From an uncultured virus (IMG/VR IMGVR_UViG_3300025789_000001) (lineage: Duplodnaviria > Heunggongvirae > Uroviricota > Caudoviricetes), in the IMG/VR virus record IMGVR_UViG_3300025789_000001: a DNA stretch of 64,000 nucleotides, one strand, 5' to 3'. Below are positions 36,023 to 43,326 of this stretch, one piece after another; position 1 is the stretch's first letter; each line of letters starts with the position of its first letter. Made by a program: the position numbers and the translations under genes. The notes beneath the pieces are model-generated. The model did no database searches. It was not told where the DNA came from and worked only from the letters and a program-made list of their open reading frames with translations.

Positions 36023-36033
36023 AATAGCTCCAA

Positions 36034-36042
36034 CTGCTAGGA
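36034..36042 (+). promoter_or_regulatory. CTGCTAGGA box overlapping SD
   Basis: AACTGCTAGGAGA, 7 nt before ATG 36050. Confidence 0.75.
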
Positions 36043-36049
36043 GATTTAG

Positions 36050-36319
36050 ATGGACTTTTACAACGAACAGATCGTAGAACTCACTGACACTGTAGTATCC
36101 TTAGACCAAGAATTAACATTAGCAAAAGACATCATCGCAGCCCATAGATGGGATGCTACCGAGATTGAAGTAGATTGGATTCATGACCTTGTCACCGAGC
36201 TTCGGGAACAAGTTAGGATTCAAGAAATTGAAATTGAAGCTCTCAAAGATTCCCGCAATATGTTTCAAGAAAGAAACGCAGAACTAATCCGTCAAGTAAA
36301 AGCGCTCAAGAAAAAATAA
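36050..36319 (+). CDS. Hypothetical coiled-coil protein
   Basis: Strong SD; TAATG-coupled to the helicase gene. Confidence 0.65.
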   Translation: MDFYNEQIVELTDTVVSLDQELTLAKDIIAAHRWDATEIEVDWIHDLVTELREQVRIQEIEIEALKDSRNMFQERNAELIRQVKALKKK

Positions 36320-37818
36320 TGGAGCTCTTATTACGGGAACACCAAGAAGGTGTTGTGGAGAAACTTCGTCAAGGGTTTCGAGAAGGCCATCGTTGCCAGC
36401 TTTTGTATGCACCCACTGGCTTTGGCAAAACAGAAGTAGCAATCTATTTAATGAAGGCTACGGCTGATAATTATCATAAAGCAGCGATGATTCTTGATCG
36501 TATTGTATTGATTGATCAGACCTCTAAACGCTTAGATAAATACTCGATTGCTCATGGCGTATTACAGGCTCAACATAAACGCCAAGATAAGACCAGGCGC
36601 ATTCAAATATGTTCGTCACAAACTATCGAGAGAAGAAATAACTTCCCCGATATTGATCTATTGATCGTAGACGAATGCCATATCACTCGGTCAGAAATTA
36701 CCAAGATCATCAAGAACAATGACAAGATTAAAGTCATTGGCTTGACCGCCACCCCGTTTACTAAAGGGCTAGGTTCTATCTATTCCAATGTGGTCTGTGC
36801 TTCGACAACTGAATCTTTAGTCGATGGTGAATGGCTATGTCCTCTCAAAGTCTACATCTCCAAAGAGATTGACATGGCTGGGGTCAAAAAGATTGCTGGT
36901 GAATGGAGTCCTGATCAAGTCACTGAACGGGGGATGCAGATCACTGGTGATATTGTGGCTGAATGGGCAAAGAAGACTTATGAAGTCTTTGGCAAACCCA
37001 TGAAGACTATTGTATTTTGTGCTGGTGTAAAGCATGGAGAAGATTTAGTAGAACAATTTGCCCGCAAGGGTTTTAACTTTGTCAGCATATCCTACAAGGA
37101 TAGTGGTGAATACAAACAGGAGGTAATTGATGACTTCGCTAGACTCGATACAAACATTCATGGGCTTATTGCTACTGATATTCTTACTCGTGGCTTCGAT
37201 GTTCCTGATGTATGTATTGGTATATCAGCTCGTCCTTTTAGTAAATCACTTAGCTCCCATGTTCAGCAGATGGGTCGGGTTATGCGATCTCACCCTACTA
37301 AACAGTTTGGTTTGTGGTTAGACCATTCAGGAAATTACATTCGTTTTAGAGATGACTGGGAAAGAATTTATTCTGAAGGTGTCAAGAATTTGGATGACAC
37401 TGGCGAGAAGACCAAAAGAGAACCAACAGAAAAGGAAAAGAAAGAACAGAAATGCCCAGCGTGTTCGGCACTCTGGCCTAGATCGTCTTCGTCATGTGCT
37501 TCGTGTGGCTATGTTAGACCGAAAAAGCAGATTGAGACCGTGTCAGGTGAATTAGTCGAGCTTGGCTTTGACAAAAATGCCAAGAAAGACGATAAACAAA
37601 AGTTCTATTCAGAGCTGATATACATCGCCAATGAAAAGAATTACAACATTAACTGGGCATCGCATATCTATAAACAGAAATTCGGAGTCTGGCCTCGTGG
37701 TTTACAAGAGTATCCCCGCATAGCCAGCTTAGAAACACAGAAGTATGTCAAACACAGAACCATCGCTTTTAGTAAACGCTTAAAGAAAATGAAGGTAAAC
37801 AATGCAGGAGTTCGTTAA
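36319..37818 (+). CDS. Superfamily 2 DNA helicase (SSL2/RadD-like) with C-terminal Zn finger
   Basis: APTGFGKT, DECH, GLTATP, RGFDVPD, QQMGRVMR, CPAC...CASCG. Confidence 0.92.
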   Translation: MELLLREHQEGVVEKLRQGFREGHRCQLLYAPTGFGKTEVAIYLMKATADNYHKAAMILDRIVLIDQTSKRLDKYSIAHGVLQAQHKRQDKTRRIQICSSQTIERRNNFPDIDLLIVDECHITRSEITKIIKNNDKIKVIGLTATPFTKGLGSIYSNVVCASTTESLVDGEWLCPLKVYISKEIDMAGVKKIAGEWSPDQVTERGMQITGDIVAEWAKKTYEVFGKPMKTIVFCAGVKHGEDLVEQFARKGFNFVSISYKDSGEYKQEVIDDFARLDTNIHGLIATDILTRGFDVPDVCIGISARPFSKSLSSHVQQMGRVMRSHPTKQFGLWLDHSGNYIRFRDDWERIYSEGVKNLDDTGEKTKREPTEKEKKEQKCPACSALWPRSSSSCASCGYVRPKKQIETVSGELVELGFDKNAKKDDKQKFYSELIYIANEKNYNINWASHIYKQKFGVWPRGLQEYPRIASLETQKYVKHRTIAFSKRLKKMKVNNAGVR

Positions 37819-38620
37819 TTTCGCAAGAGAACATGGCTTGATTATGAATAACAATCTTGTCATGGACAGATGGGTAGCCACCCCAACAGAAGATCATCCA
37901 AGATCCACAAACGGTAGATATAAATTCTTAGGCAATGTCGGCTGGGCTATCAACTGGGCAACAATGGATAAACCCGCCACCTGGTTTGCTGAAGGTGTCA
38001 GCAAGACCGAAATCAAAAAACAAATGTCTTCGTCAAACGATTCAAGGAAAAAAGAGGCACAGGCTGCAGCAGAAAAAGCACAGTGGATTTTGTCTCAATG
38101 CAGTTTGGAATCGCATCCATACCTTGAACGCAAGGGATTTAAAAACGAACAGGGAAATGTCTTCGTCAAAGGGCTCGACAAACTGTTAGTTATTCCCATG
38201 CGGATACAGGGCTCTGTGGTGGGATGCCAGCTCATCGACCACGAGGGGAACAAAAAGTTCTTGCATGGTCAGACGAGCAAGGGGGCAACTTTTACGATTG
38301 GGACACGAGGCACTGCAATATTCTGCGAAGGGTATGCCACTGGCCTCAGTGTCAGGGATATCATGACCAAAATGAATCTCCCTTATACGATCCACATCTG
38401 CTTCTCCGCAAACAACATGGAGCTCATAGCAAGGAACATCGGGAAGGGGCTGATTATCGCTGATAACGATAGCAGTGGTGTTGGAGAGATGGTGGCCAAA
38501 AAGACACAAAAGCCGTATTGGATCTCCCCAGCAACTGGGGAGGATTTTAATGACTACCATATGAGAGTCGGCAATTTCAAGGCTTCTCAGGATTTAAAGA
38601 GGTTGCTACTTTCCTTATAA
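37802..38620 (+). CDS. TOPRIM-domain DNA primase
   Basis: HPYLERKG, CEGYATG, IIADND, DFND. Confidence 0.85.
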   Translation: MQEFVNFAREHGLIMNNNLVMDRWVATPTEDHPRSTNGRYKFLGNVGWAINWATMDKPATWFAEGVSKTEIKKQMSSSNDSRKKEAQAAAEKAQWILSQCSLESHPYLERKGFKNEQGNVFVKGLDKLLVIPMRIQGSVVGCQLIDHEGNKKFLHGQTSKGATFTIGTRGTAIFCEGYATGLSVRDIMTKMNLPYTIHICFSANNMELIARNIGKGLIIADNDSSGVGEMVAKKTQKPYWISPATGEDFNDYHMRVGNFKASQDLKRLLLSL

Positions 38621-38927
38621 ACCTAGCTTCAATCTGCCTGATCCTTTCACGATTAAGAACAAAAGTATTACCCACTGATTGTAGCGTATGACCTTCTGCC
38701 CTCATCTTCAGGATATTCCAGTATTTTTCCCGTAGGGTTTTATTATTGGATTTAAAGAGTATGTCAAACTTCTCACGACTGGGAAAGTCCACCAGCTTGT
38801 AAGGGGCATCGCCCCCTACAAACACTGGCACTTTACCCTTGCACTTGCTTAGGTTCATCCTGTCCTTTCTCAATGATGACATAGCCTGTTTCATCAATGT
38901 AGTATTGCTGGCCTGATTCTTTGGCAC
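38577..38927 (-). CDS. Sigma70 region-4-like HTH protein
   Basis: TLQSVGNTFVLNRERIRQIEAR. Confidence 0.7.
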   Translation of the reverse strand: MPKNQASNTTLMKQAMSSLRKDRMNLSKCKGKVPVFVGGDAPYKLVDFPSREKFDILFKSNNKTLREKYWNILKMRAEGHTLQSVGNTFVLNRERIRQIEARFIRKVATSLNPEKP

Positions 38928-40090: not shown

Positions 40091-40283
40091 GACTAAACTC
40101 CTCCAATGTAAGTGGCTCAACTTCAACAAACTCATCACCACTGTCCAAAATATCTTTCGATATATGGCTCTCTATCTTTTTTGCATATGCTTCTGCTTTT
40201 GATTCAGAATCAAATGCTATAAGGTTTGTATAGCCGTTATATGCACCATACGATTTCACGATATATATTGTTTTCATTGTCAA
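40083..40283 (-). CDS. Hypothetical early protein
   Basis: IYIVK...AFDSESKAEAY motif. Confidence 0.55.
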   Translation of the reverse strand: MTMKTIYIVKSYGAYNGYTNLIAFDSESKAEAYAKKIESHISKDILDSGDEFVEVEPLTLEEFSHA

Positions 40284-40287
40284 ATCC

Positions 40288-40734
40288 TTACCAGCTTGAC
40301 TGGTAGTAAAAGTCCCAGTTAACGGCAGACGGGTTTGTCAAAATCTCCGACAATCTGTCCCTAGTCTCAGTAATGCTCTGCCAGTAGTATTCATCCTTTT
40401 CAGTGCTGCCGAAAAAAAATCCCGATACTGGCTTAAGAATATCTTCATCACGATTTACCAATGCTTCGTTGCATAGTGCAACCAGCTCGTCCAACTGGGC
40501 AGAATCGACCCAGTATTCCCCGCAGTCATCAAGTCCCTCCTGAACATTATCGACAAACCAATTATGGATAGCGTTGCACTTTCTCCAATACATCACATCA
40601 AAGGATACCGACTTGGCATCGTAGGCCGTAACCCCCAACACCTTCGCCACATCCTTGCGTAAATGTTGCTCTTCTTCTTTGTGATTCCACAAATATTGCT
40701 TTGCGGTCAAATACATATCTAAACCCATGATCAC
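40288..40734 (-). CDS. Conserved phage early protein
   Basis: MGLDMYL...YWRKCNAIHNWFV...GFFFG...YYQSSW. Confidence 0.75.
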   Translation of the reverse strand: MIMGLDMYLTAKQYLWNHKEEEQHLRKDVAKVLGVTAYDAKSVSFDVMYWRKCNAIHNWFVDNVQEGLDDCGEYWVDSAQLDELVALCNEALVNRDEDILKPVSGFFFGSTEKDEYYWQSITETRDRLSEILTNPSAVNWDFYYQSSW

Positions 40735-40910: not shown

Positions 40911-40917
40911 TTCAATC

Positions 40918-40926
40918 TCCTAGCAG
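40918..40926 (-). promoter_or_regulatory. CTGCTAGGA box overlapping SD
   Basis: TTAACTGCTAGGAGA, 7 nt before ATG 40910. Confidence 0.75.
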
Positions 40927-40929
40927 TTA

Positions 40930-40980
40930 ATCAAAGACTGGATCACTCCAGTTTCGTCCTTACAGACTCATCAGTTTGAT
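40930..40980 (-). ncRNA. Type I hammerhead ribozyme (HH1)
   Basis: AUCAAA CUGAUGA GUCU-GUAA-GGAC GAAA CUGGA-GUGA-UCCAG UC^UUUGAU; full core, three stems; cut between 40936 and 40935. Confidence 0.93.
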
Positions 40981-42514: not shown

Positions 42515-42522
42515 TTTATTTC

Positions 42523-42531
42523 TCCTAGCAG
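42523..42531 (-). promoter_or_regulatory. CTGCTAGGA box overlapping SD
   Basis: TTAACTGCTAGGAGA, 8 nt before TTG 42514. Confidence 0.75.
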
Positions 42532-42543
42532 TTAATGATTACC

Positions 42544-42589
42544 GAATGGCAATCCCGATACCCCGAAGGGCATCAGGATTACAGCACTC
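42544..42589 (-). other. Long intergenic RNA hairpin (possible processing site)
   Basis: GAGUG-CU-GUAAUCCUGAUGCCC-UUCG-GGGUAUCGGGAUUGC-CAUUC: 20 bp with G-U pairs and a C(UUCG)G loop. Confidence 0.7.
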
Positions 42590-42719
42590 AAGACCGATTC
42601 AAGAACTCAGCTACCTTCAAGGCTTCGTCCATATACGCAAACAGTGCCATGATCTCTCCATTCTCATCCTCAATAGCGTATGGGAACTTAGGATCACTAC
42701 AGGCAATTACTCCAAACAT
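42588..42719 (-). CDS. Hypothetical early protein, 43 aa (not in ORF track)
   Basis: SD AAGGAG; MFGVIACSDPKFPYAIEDENGE...AEFLNRS. Confidence 0.6.
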   Translation of the reverse strand: MFGVIACSDPKFPYAIEDENGEIMALFAYMDEALKVAEFLNRS

Positions 42720-42730
42720 AATCAATCTCC

Positions 42731-42925
42731 TTAGAAAGTAAAACCAGTAAAAACAACACGATTACCCCTGATGAACTTCCCATGATTCATATCGTCAAAC
42801 TTATGAACCCAGTATTGACGGGAAGAACGGCAGTAGTAGTCGCAGACCCAAACAGGGGAAGTCTCAGTGCCTTTTAGCTTAAAGAACTCTCCCTTAGCTA
42901 TCTTCTTGAGTAGTGATGGTTGCAT
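42731..42925 (-). CDS. Hypothetical early protein, downstream of hammerhead 2
   Basis: LKK..KGEFFKL...VWV..YY.RS..Y...FDD.N...VFTGFTF. Confidence 0.7.
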   Translation of the reverse strand: MQPSLLKKIAKGEFFKLKGTETSPVWVCDYYCRSSRQYWVHKFDDMNHGKFIRGNRVVFTGFTF

Positions 42926-42932
42926 CGTTATC

Positions 42933-42941
42933 TCCTAGCAG
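42933..42941 (-). promoter_or_regulatory. CTGCTAGGA box overlapping SD
   Basis: CACTGCTAGGAGA, 7 nt before ATG 42925. Confidence 0.75.
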
Positions 42942-42945
42942 TGTT

Positions 42946-42993
42946 GTCAAAGACCCCGAAGGGTTTCGCCTATTGAAGGCTCATCAGTTTGAC
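42946..42993 (-). ncRNA. Type I hammerhead ribozyme (HH2)
   Basis: GUCAAA CUGAUGA GCCU-UCAAU-AGGC GAAA CCC-UUCG-GGG UC^UUUGAC; cut between 42952 and 42951. Confidence 0.93.
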
Positions 42994-42997
42994 TGGG

Positions 42998-43246
42998 TTA
43001 GAACTGGCAGTTATCAGACATCTCCTGACGAAGATCAATCCATTCCTGAATGGCTTTAAGCGTCTTAGCCATATCGAACTGGGATTCTGATAGATACTCA
43101 AGAATATCCCCATCCGACCATGCTTCTACTATCGCATCCCAACCTTCGTTGTATAAAGCTCCAGCGTATGCTCTTACAACTTGAATCATCTTCTCCTCAT
43201 CTATCTGCTTATCCCATATGGCGATTGTGTCTTGTAGTGTCTGCAT
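42998..43246 (-). CDS. First gene of the early operon, acidic hypothetical protein
   Basis: VRAYA...Y..GWD.IVEAWSD..I; SD AGGAG within the variant box CTACTAGGA. Confidence 0.65.
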   Translation of the reverse strand: MQTLQDTIAIWDKQIDEEKMIQVVRAYAGALYNEGWDAIVEAWSDGDILEYLSESQFDMAKTLKAIQEWIDLRQEMSDNCQF

Positions 43247-43298: not shown

Positions 43299-43326
43299 AT
43301 GATAATCCAAAACACTTGACTTGCAA
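43299..43326 (-). promoter_or_regulatory. Sigma70-like promoter of the leftward early operon
   Basis: TTGCAA-16 nt-TATCAT on the minus strand; leader hairpin TCATTCA/TGAATGA. Confidence 0.6.

Follow-up and report, generated by a model that had tools for sequence, protein, structure and literature searches.

Within a leftward block of small genes in the DNA of an uncultured virus, a 51-nt element on the minus strand (HH1) lies between two open reading frames (ORFs), and the stop codon of the upstream ORF lies inside what appears to be the catalytic core of a hammerhead ribozyme. This arrangement raises the questions of whether HH1 is a genuine hammerhead, what a hammerhead would do between two genes of a phage operon, and whether the stop codon in its core has a function of its own. 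The whole 64,000-nt stretch of DNA that was analyzed is referred to below as the window, and the coordinates of the features are given in Table 1.

Table 1. Features of the HH1 locus and of related elements in the window
Feature	Position	Strand	Basis or detail
HH1 (type I hammerhead, 51 nt)	40930..40980	minus	core and helices read from the sequence
HH1 stem I	5' strand 40980-40975, 3' strand 40935-40930	minus	6 bp, open
HH1 core CUGAUGA	40974-40968	minus	direct sequence reading
HH1 stem II and GUAA loop	40967-40956	minus	4 bp, closed by a U.G pair
HH1 GAA	40955-40953	minus	direct sequence reading
HH1 stem III and GUGA loop	40952-40937	minus	6 bp including A15.1-U16.1
HH1 C17	40936	minus	predicted cleavage between 40936 and 40935
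Upstream ORF, 120 aa	40971..41333	minus	PHROG phrog_21047, E 9e-6; 16 related loci in viral contigs
Leader of the predicted 3' cleavage product, 25 nt	40911..40935	minus	sequence; conserved after the hammerheads of many relatives
Conserved motif AACUGCUAGGAG	40928-40917	minus	inside the 25-nt leader
UAGGAG, likely Shine-Dalgarno	40922-40917	minus	6 nt before AUG
Downstream ORF, 59 aa	40731..40910	minus	phrog_9027; start 25 nt past the predicted cleavage site
Next ORF, 148 aa	40288..40734	minus	phrog_7971; ATGA overlap with the 59-aa ORF
HH2 (type I hammerhead, 48 nt)	42946..42993	minus	HH9 21.6 bits; R2 67.4 bits
Long hairpin, UUCG loop	42542..42591, leader to 42522	minus	MFE -31.1 kcal/mol, z -4.46
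Sigma-70-like promoter candidate (TTGCAA, 16 nt, TATCAT)	43299..43326	minus	consensus scan, 9/12 matches

Core, fold, and covariation of HH1

The initial annotation, which was made from the sequence alone, placed a hammerhead here, and both the place of the motif and the minus-strand sequence of positions 40930 to 40980 are as it stated. The hammerhead core set is present in HH1 (C3, U4, G5, A6, N7, G8, and A9, and then G12, A13, and A14), together with the A15.1-U16.1 pair, which is formed by A40952 and U40937, and with a nucleotide other than G at position 17 (H17), which is C40936. The full conserved core, the GUC cleavage site, and the GUAA and GUGA loops that had been described are seen in the sequence, and all of the core residues align to the consensus of RF00163, the Rfam family of type I hammerheads. 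HH1 shares with this family the core, the GUC triplet, the open stem I, and the closed stems II and III; with stem I open and the other two stems capped by loops, its topology is that of type I. It differs in that its stem I has only 6 bp and no internal loop and its stem III is longer than the Rfam consensus. The base next after stem I, U40929, faces another U and is left unpaired.

RF00163 matches HH1 end to end with 28.1 bits (E value of 3.1e-5 in a 201-nt stretch), but this is below the gathering score of 34 bits for this family (clan CL00010). At Rfam gathering thresholds, the whole 64-kb window gave no match, and HH1 was not listed in the whole-window Rfam scan by E value, in which only a second hammerhead, HH2, was listed, as HH9 (21.6 bits). 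The gathering score is a database cut-off and not a biological feature, and RF00163 under-scores HH1. A model (R2) was built from 26 relatives in other viral contigs, with the window sequence left out, and it scores HH1 at 63.3 bits (E value of 1.3e-15) and HH2 at 67.4 bits (E value of 8.5e-17), the best non-hammerhead match in 64 kb having 16.7 bits. For the exact 51 nt of HH1, the structure of minimum free energy (MFE) is the three-way-junction hammerhead fold (-11.8 kcal/mol). With 5-nt flanks, however, the MFE structure is another fold (-14.9 kcal/mol) that retains only stem III, and this competing fold, which is better by about 3 kcal/mol, is a point against the folding of HH1 as a hammerhead. 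Energy models leave out the non-canonical contacts of the hammerhead core.

Relatives of HH1 were collected with a subfamily pattern in which the fixed positions were limited to the core, the inner portion of stem I, and the opening pairs of the other two stems. It gave 57 matches at 56 loci, comprising 28 distinct sequences, all of them in viral contigs, and none in 185,579 reference genomes (genome_contigs). Each of the 28 distinct variants has an ORF upstream of the hammerhead and a start codon downstream of it, in most cases with a Shine-Dalgarno site. In an alignment of 28 sequences (26 relatives and the two window copies), standard pairing is found in 421/421 cells, and two-sided (compensatory) changes occur in 8 of the 16 pairs (stem I, 1; stem II, 3; stem III, 4). 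The compensatory cells number 67, against 17.7 ± 3.7 in shuffles, the covariation score was reached by 0/500 shuffles, and pairing drops to at most 47% of cells when the partner is slid by 1 to 3 columns. Eight of the 16 pairs could not vary, being fixed wholly or on one side by the search pattern, and are uninformative either way; all 8 pairs that the pattern left free show compensatory changes. The type I identity given to HH1 by the initial annotation is upheld by its core and topology, the covariation, and the held-out model, which agree with one another. A match of the family models at 40277-40302 on the minus strand (16.7 to 16.8 bits) was considered as a third hammerhead and rejected, as it has only a stem-I-like hairpin and is probably due to chance. 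This hairpin (GUCAA.../...UUGAC) spans the stop codon of the 148-aa ORF and the next start codon, and it could be a hammerhead relic.

The layout of HH1, with a 4-bp stem II bearing a GNRA loop that ends in A, a 6-bp stem I, and an unpaired U1.7, resembles that of minimal hammerheads studied by O'Rourke, Estell, and Scott in 2015, for which, according to the account in PMC11875169, the unpaired U1.7 was proposed to form a Hoogsteen pair with the fourth base of the GNRA stem II loop. As described in that account, their constructs were engineered and trans-cleaving, unlike HH1. In a set of 74 distinct type I hammerheads from phages, all with 6 bp in stem I, U1.7 accompanies a GNRA loop II in 5/5 cases, and A1.7 accompanies a UNAAU pentaloop in 29/29 cases and a UNRRU loop in 6/6 cases. 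In the same 74 hammerheads, U1.7 is also found with five other tetraloops (AUAA, AAAA, UGUA, AGAA, and AUGA), and six other tetraloops are found with A or C at 1.7. Two members that have a GUC-type stem I and the tetraloop AAAA or AGAA have U1.7, suggesting that the link between the loop and base 1.7 is not only a matter of shared descent. The hammerheads compared are related to one another, and the coupling between the type of loop II and base 1.7 is at most suggestive of a tertiary contact, and the U at 1.7 of HH1, which had been noted as compatible with a GNRA/U contact, is read directly in the layout and would fit the GNRA-U1.7 association.

Second hammerhead, shared leader, and long hairpin

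HH2 lies 2 kb from HH1, on the same minus strand and in the same leftward early operon, and both hammerheads are located between small ORFs. HH2 has stem I strands GUCAAA and UUUGAC, a stem II with a UCAAU pentaloop, a stem III with a UUCG loop, and C17 at 42952. Its upstream ORF (42998..43246) ends with a UAA at 43000-42998, 13 nt before C3, and its downstream ORF (42731..42925) starts 20 nt past stem I. In the nearest record, a 43-kb viral contig (G001), the sequence matches the window at 100% identity starting at the 5' edge of HH2 (42994). On the upstream side of this position, there is a diverged allele of the preceding gene, where the nearest record has no DNA-level match and where one alignment of 88.5% spans the junction. 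The identity of 100% that starts exactly at the first base of HH2 indicates a mosaic breakpoint at this position. The gene upstream of HH2, compared between the window and G001, L057, L049, L035, L007, and L008, occurs as two diverged alleles with differing C-termini and with stops at -13 or -8. In addition, a related viral contig (L023) has a 69-nt tandem duplication of the region corresponding to window positions 42942-42873, directly after HH2, which covers the leader and the start of a 64-aa gene.

Both hammerheads are followed by the motif AACUGCUAGGAG, which also follows the long hairpin and precedes one plus-strand gene. Its exact copies in the window are at 36032 (+), 40917 (-), and 42522 (-), and a copy with 1 mismatch is at 42932 (-). 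These 12-nt copies (36032-36043, 40917-40928, 42522-42533, and 42932-42943) lie just before start codons on both strands, and the motif, which is longer than Shine-Dalgarno function requires, is also present in many related phages. Homologs of the 59-aa gene downstream of HH1 are preceded at two other loci (L044 and L050) by different hammerhead variants, behind different upstream genes. Homologs of the 148-aa gene and of the DUF6876 gene have a hammerhead ahead of them in some phages and a long hairpin in others, and the 148-aa gene of the window has neither of the two ahead of it. Judged from these gene orders, the hammerhead stays together with the leader and gene that follow it and not with the gene that precedes it.

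The long hairpin at 42542-42591 has approximately 20 to 22 bp with a 2-nt bulge and is followed by the AACUGCUAGGAG leader, before the DUF6876 gene; the stop codon of ORF 42588..42725 lies within its lower stem. In relatives, a hammerhead occupies the slot of this hairpin, and conversely, one relative (L198) has a hairpin at the position of HH1. Viral contigs contain 19 related copies of the hairpin, and 1 of its 20 predicted pairs shows a compensatory change. The central base of the stop codon and the base opposite it covary, forming G-C in 3 and A-U in 3. An Rfam search with the hairpin gave nothing better than an E value of 4.6. It contains CUGAUG and was therefore considered as a core-deleted hammerhead, but it has neither A9 nor GAAA, and its CUGAU is taken up in a perfectly paired stem; an independent element is more likely than a dead hammerhead. 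The hairpin could serve for processing of the RNase III type or for stabilization, and the replacement of a hammerhead by a hairpin ahead of a shared leader at orthologous junctions fits a generic processing or stabilizing role.

The leftward block (43246 to 38577) comprises about 20 small ORFs in close succession, most of them without a known function. It is flanked by the small and large terminase subunit genes, on the plus strand from 43615, and by helicase and primase genes at 36319-38620, and these terminase, primase, and helicase genes place HH1 and HH2 in a tailed-phage context. The large terminase is 55 to 59% identical to those of the Pelagibacter phages HTVC027P and HTVC023P and of two uncultured aquatic phages. 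R2 gave no match in HTVC027P, HTVC023P, 023Pt_psg01, or DSL-LC04, the nearest phages by large terminase, although an empty answer of this kind proves no absence. Searches of the region against the phage collection by megablast and blastn also gave no match. DNA of the window was found in 24 sequencing runs, all of which are freshwater metagenome DNA.

Stop codons at the ribozyme core

The 120-aa ORF upstream of HH1 ends with UCA AAC UGA, so that its final Ser-Asn codons are formed by the 5' strand of stem I and C3, and its stop codon (40973-40971) coincides with the core residues U4-G5-A6. The next codon in this frame (40970-40968) is again UGA, which gives a tandem stop in the HH1 core. The sequence and the ORF reading agree on this point, and the first UGA of CUGAUGA is indeed the stop codon that the initial annotation had taken it to be.

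How common this overlap is was surveyed in matches to a generic hammerhead core pattern in viral contigs (at least 126 stretches) and in the subfamily loci, with a stem I of at least 5 bp, a stem II of at least 3 bp, and a stem III of at least 4 bp. The upstream ORF was defined by a crude rule as an open stretch of at least 40 codons that ends between -30 and +45 of C3. Among the matches listed, the 138 cases form 83 clusters, whose upstream C-terminal peptides are less than 40% identical; this sample is biased by the pattern, and the clustering removes relatedness only partly. Among these matches, the upstream ORF stops at the first UGA of the core in 25 of the 83 clusters (30%) and at a UAG at -8 in 13, and the stop lies within -15 to +12 of C3 in 77. 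With stops this close to C3, a terminating ribosome must melt stem I and the core in nearly all arrangements, which makes some interplay between translation and folding physically unavoidable, whether or not it has a regulatory effect. The frame of the tandem UGA is used in 46 clusters and the other two frames in 20 and 17 (chi-square P value of 1e-4 for the 83 clusters among the matches listed). Where the ORF enters the ribozyme, it stops at the core UGA in 25 of 34 clusters among the matches listed, against an expectation of one-third (binomial P value of 2e-6). The ORFs that end before the ribozyme have no significant frame preference among the matches listed (21, 17, and 11; P value of 0.21). 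Neither the frequency of stop codons in the core nor the frame bias was found in the literature searched, and the main text of PMC3088659 does not contain the term "stop codon."

Of the 39 distinct contexts in the HH1 subfamily, 13 use the core UGA as the stop, behind unrelated genes. All 13 of these proteins end with the ribozyme-encoded Ser-Asn, and by their C-terminal sequences they make up at least four or five dissimilar groups. In 8 more of the 39 contexts, the stop is the UAG at -8, which shares the frame of the core UGAs. In contexts with a GUC-type stem I, the two arrangements, UAG-UCA-AAC-UGA and CAG-UCA-AAC-UGA, are one base apart at that codon. The position of the stop also varies among homologs of the same upstream gene. 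For the 82-aa gene ahead of HH2 and its family, the window has the stop at -13, L034 and L036 have it at -8, and L015 and L040 have it at +1, provided that the last two are true homologs, which was judged by eye from a short C-terminal similarity. In L198, an orthologue of the 120-aa gene with 79% identity ends on its own UAA, which is followed by the long hairpin and the shared leader, without a hammerhead. More distant relatives of the 120-aa gene (58 to 61% identical, 177 to 182 aa) have no such element downstream. With homologs that stop at -13, -8, or +1 or that have a hairpin instead, the overlap looks optional and labile. As far as these comparisons go, the stop in the core of HH1 is genuine, but it is nothing unusual among type I hammerheads of phages. 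The overlap looks like an easily gained and lost by-product of flush packing, with selection seeming to favor the frame that halts ribosomes at once.

Probable role of HH1 in the operon

Taken as a type I hammerhead, HH1 is probably a processing site, which is predicted to cut a polycistronic early message into units. Once its 51 nt are transcribed, HH1 would fold into the three-way junction, with the unpaired U1.7 probably docking on the last A of the stem II GUAA loop, and would cut itself constitutively after C40936. The upstream piece would carry the whole 120-aa ORF with its stop codon and would have a 3' end made of the two ribozyme hairpins and bearing a 2',3'-cyclic phosphate. The downstream piece would start with a 5'-OH and a fixed 25-nt leader that includes the ribosome-binding site of the 59-aa gene. 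The resulting message units would have a stability and a translation start independent of the upstream gene, which would suit cassettes that are shuffled between phages. The core, with its two in-frame UGAs, would bring ribosomes to an immediate stop, and ORFs that enter the ribozyme would preferentially be kept in that frame. What the sequence shows for HH1 is the motif with its covariation and position and the overlap with the stop codon and how often it occurs, whereas self-cutting, the nature of the RNA ends, the docking of U1.7, and the insulation of the downstream gene are what we infer. The motif, its covariation, the occurrence of the same downstream genes behind different upstream genes, and the breakpoint at the edge of HH2 all count for the processing-site reading. 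The benefit of a 5'-OH end would hinge on the RNases of the host, which counts against it.

The overlap of stop and core could also mean, as the initial annotation proposed, that the ribozyme is gated by translation, i.e., that ribosomes terminating at the core UGA keep stem I and the core unfolded and that cleavage, and with it the release of the downstream cistron, depends on how heavily the upstream gene is translated. A ribosome terminating in the core must cover stem I and the core, the 77 of 83 stops at -15 to +12 among the matches listed imply a collision of ribosome and ribozyme nearly everywhere, and 25 of the 34 ORFs entering the ribozyme stop at the core UGA (P value of 2e-6 among the matches listed). 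Gating is nevertheless unlikely, as the exact overlap is optional: stops at -13, -8, and +1 are found among homologs of the upstream genes, the 79% identical orthologue of the 120-aa gene uses its own UAA before a hairpin, and the stop ahead of HH2, which belongs to this operon too, lies 13 nt before C3. Selection against deep read-in that adds junk tails would account for the frame bias just as well. An extension of the same idea, in which portable stop-ribozyme-leader cassettes give Ser-Asn and a tandem UGA-UGA to any gene that recombination puts upstream, terminating ribosomes briefly unfold the ribozyme, and the cleavage rate is set by upstream translation, is quite improbable; if true, such a cassette would be a natural translation-sensing ribozyme.

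The mosaic breakpoint that coincides with the 5' edge of HH2, with about 100% identity beyond it, the same downstream genes behind different upstream genes, and the AACUGCUAGGAG leader common to both hammerheads and the hairpin elements would also be expected if the ribozyme and leader served mainly as homology for cassette swaps, with RNA cleavage secondary or lost. We consider it doubtful, at best a minor prospect, that such a recombination linker is the main role, as stems II and III change in a compensatory manner around an invariant core, which points to selection on the RNA fold and the catalytic residues and not on DNA homology; a linker is, in any case, compatible with a processing role, and the two are not exclusive. 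It is very unlikely that HH1 is a weak intrinsic terminator or a plain stabilizing hairpin, consisting of stem III followed by CUUUGAUU, with the remainder incidental. A terminator scan flags 40952-40937 and the U-rich tail, but 3 of the 6 bp in the stem are G-C, 6 such sites occur in the region against 5.0 expected in shuffles, and a same-strand gene with its own Shine-Dalgarno site begins 25 nt further on; this reading also leaves the invariant CUGAUGA and GAAA and the covarying stems I and II unexplained. A chance resemblance to the hammerhead consensus in compact phage DNA might account for an RF00163 score below gathering, and a loose core pattern has many chance matches in the window, but the held-out R2 E value of 1.3e-15, the 28 distinct relatives with full pairing, and the presence of another copy on this strand, at a distance of 2 kb, make it extremely improbable.

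The processing-site reading has parallels in engineered and natural systems. RiboJ is a synthetic ribozyme insulator, and the early genes of phage T7 are separated by RNase III sites, which are cut by a host enzyme. Like HH1 in its predicted role, both are cut between the upstream context and the next ribosome-binding site, which gives a defined 5' end. Unlike the T7 sites, HH1 would cut itself, and the hairpin that takes its slot elsewhere may depend on an enzyme of the host. The substitution of hammerhead and hairpin ahead of a shared leader is a natural comparison for the purpose of the cut.

Hammerheads between the genes of phage operons have been known since 2011, and HH1 adds one well-supported case. 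In the study of Perreault et al. (2011; PMC3088659), as its text describes, clustered prophage hammerheads cleave polycistronic RNAs of about 2 kb in vitro and, for one set, in Escherichia coli, and the processing of polycistronic RNA was proposed as their role. HH1 and HH2 are likewise only a few kilobases apart, on the coding strand of a phage operon and between varying genes, and they form a cluster of the same kind, i.e., at least two hammerheads within a few kilobases, on the gene strand, and in intergenic slots. In contrast, the examples described in that study are from prophages of cultured bacteria and include types II and III, whereas the HH1 subfamily is found in viral contigs only, at 56 loci. 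The same source describes HHphage, a hammerhead of the haloviruses HF1 and HF2, for which a mapped transcript 5' end lies at most 3 nt from the cleavage site (PMC3088659). As described there, the core of HHphage carries an atypical insertion and its host is an archaeon, unlike HH1, whose core is canonical and which is known from sequence alone. A 2019 review (PMC6765202), in what it says of bacterial and phage hammerheads, still treats their function as unsettled. HH1 and HH2 provide a clean, covariation-supported instance of hammerhead punctuation in an early operon, in a freshwater phage lineage without a cultured close relative. The survey adds two modest points, namely, that about 30% of phage type I hammerheads use the core UGA as the stop of the upstream gene and that there is a strong frame bias, both among the matches listed.

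The co-transcription of the whole operon is assumed from its gene packing. The sigma-70-like promoter candidate precedes the first gene of the leftward operon that includes both hammerheads; the region has fewer sigma-70-like sites than its shuffles, and the promoter evidence at 43299..43326 is therefore weak. The TTGACA within "UUUGACAA" of the GUC-type stem I was considered as a -35 box and rejected, with no -10 element at 17 nt in the examples inspected. The last gene of the leftward block (38577-38927, minus strand) encodes a protein of 116 aa whose only domain is sigma-70 region 4 (PF04545; E value of 1.3e-6), and this protein may be a phage transcription factor. In addition, direct repeats of the GTAGTATGAGGCTAA type occur about 100 nt upstream of homologs of the 120-aa gene in viral contigs (L199-L205) and may be operator or promoter repeats.
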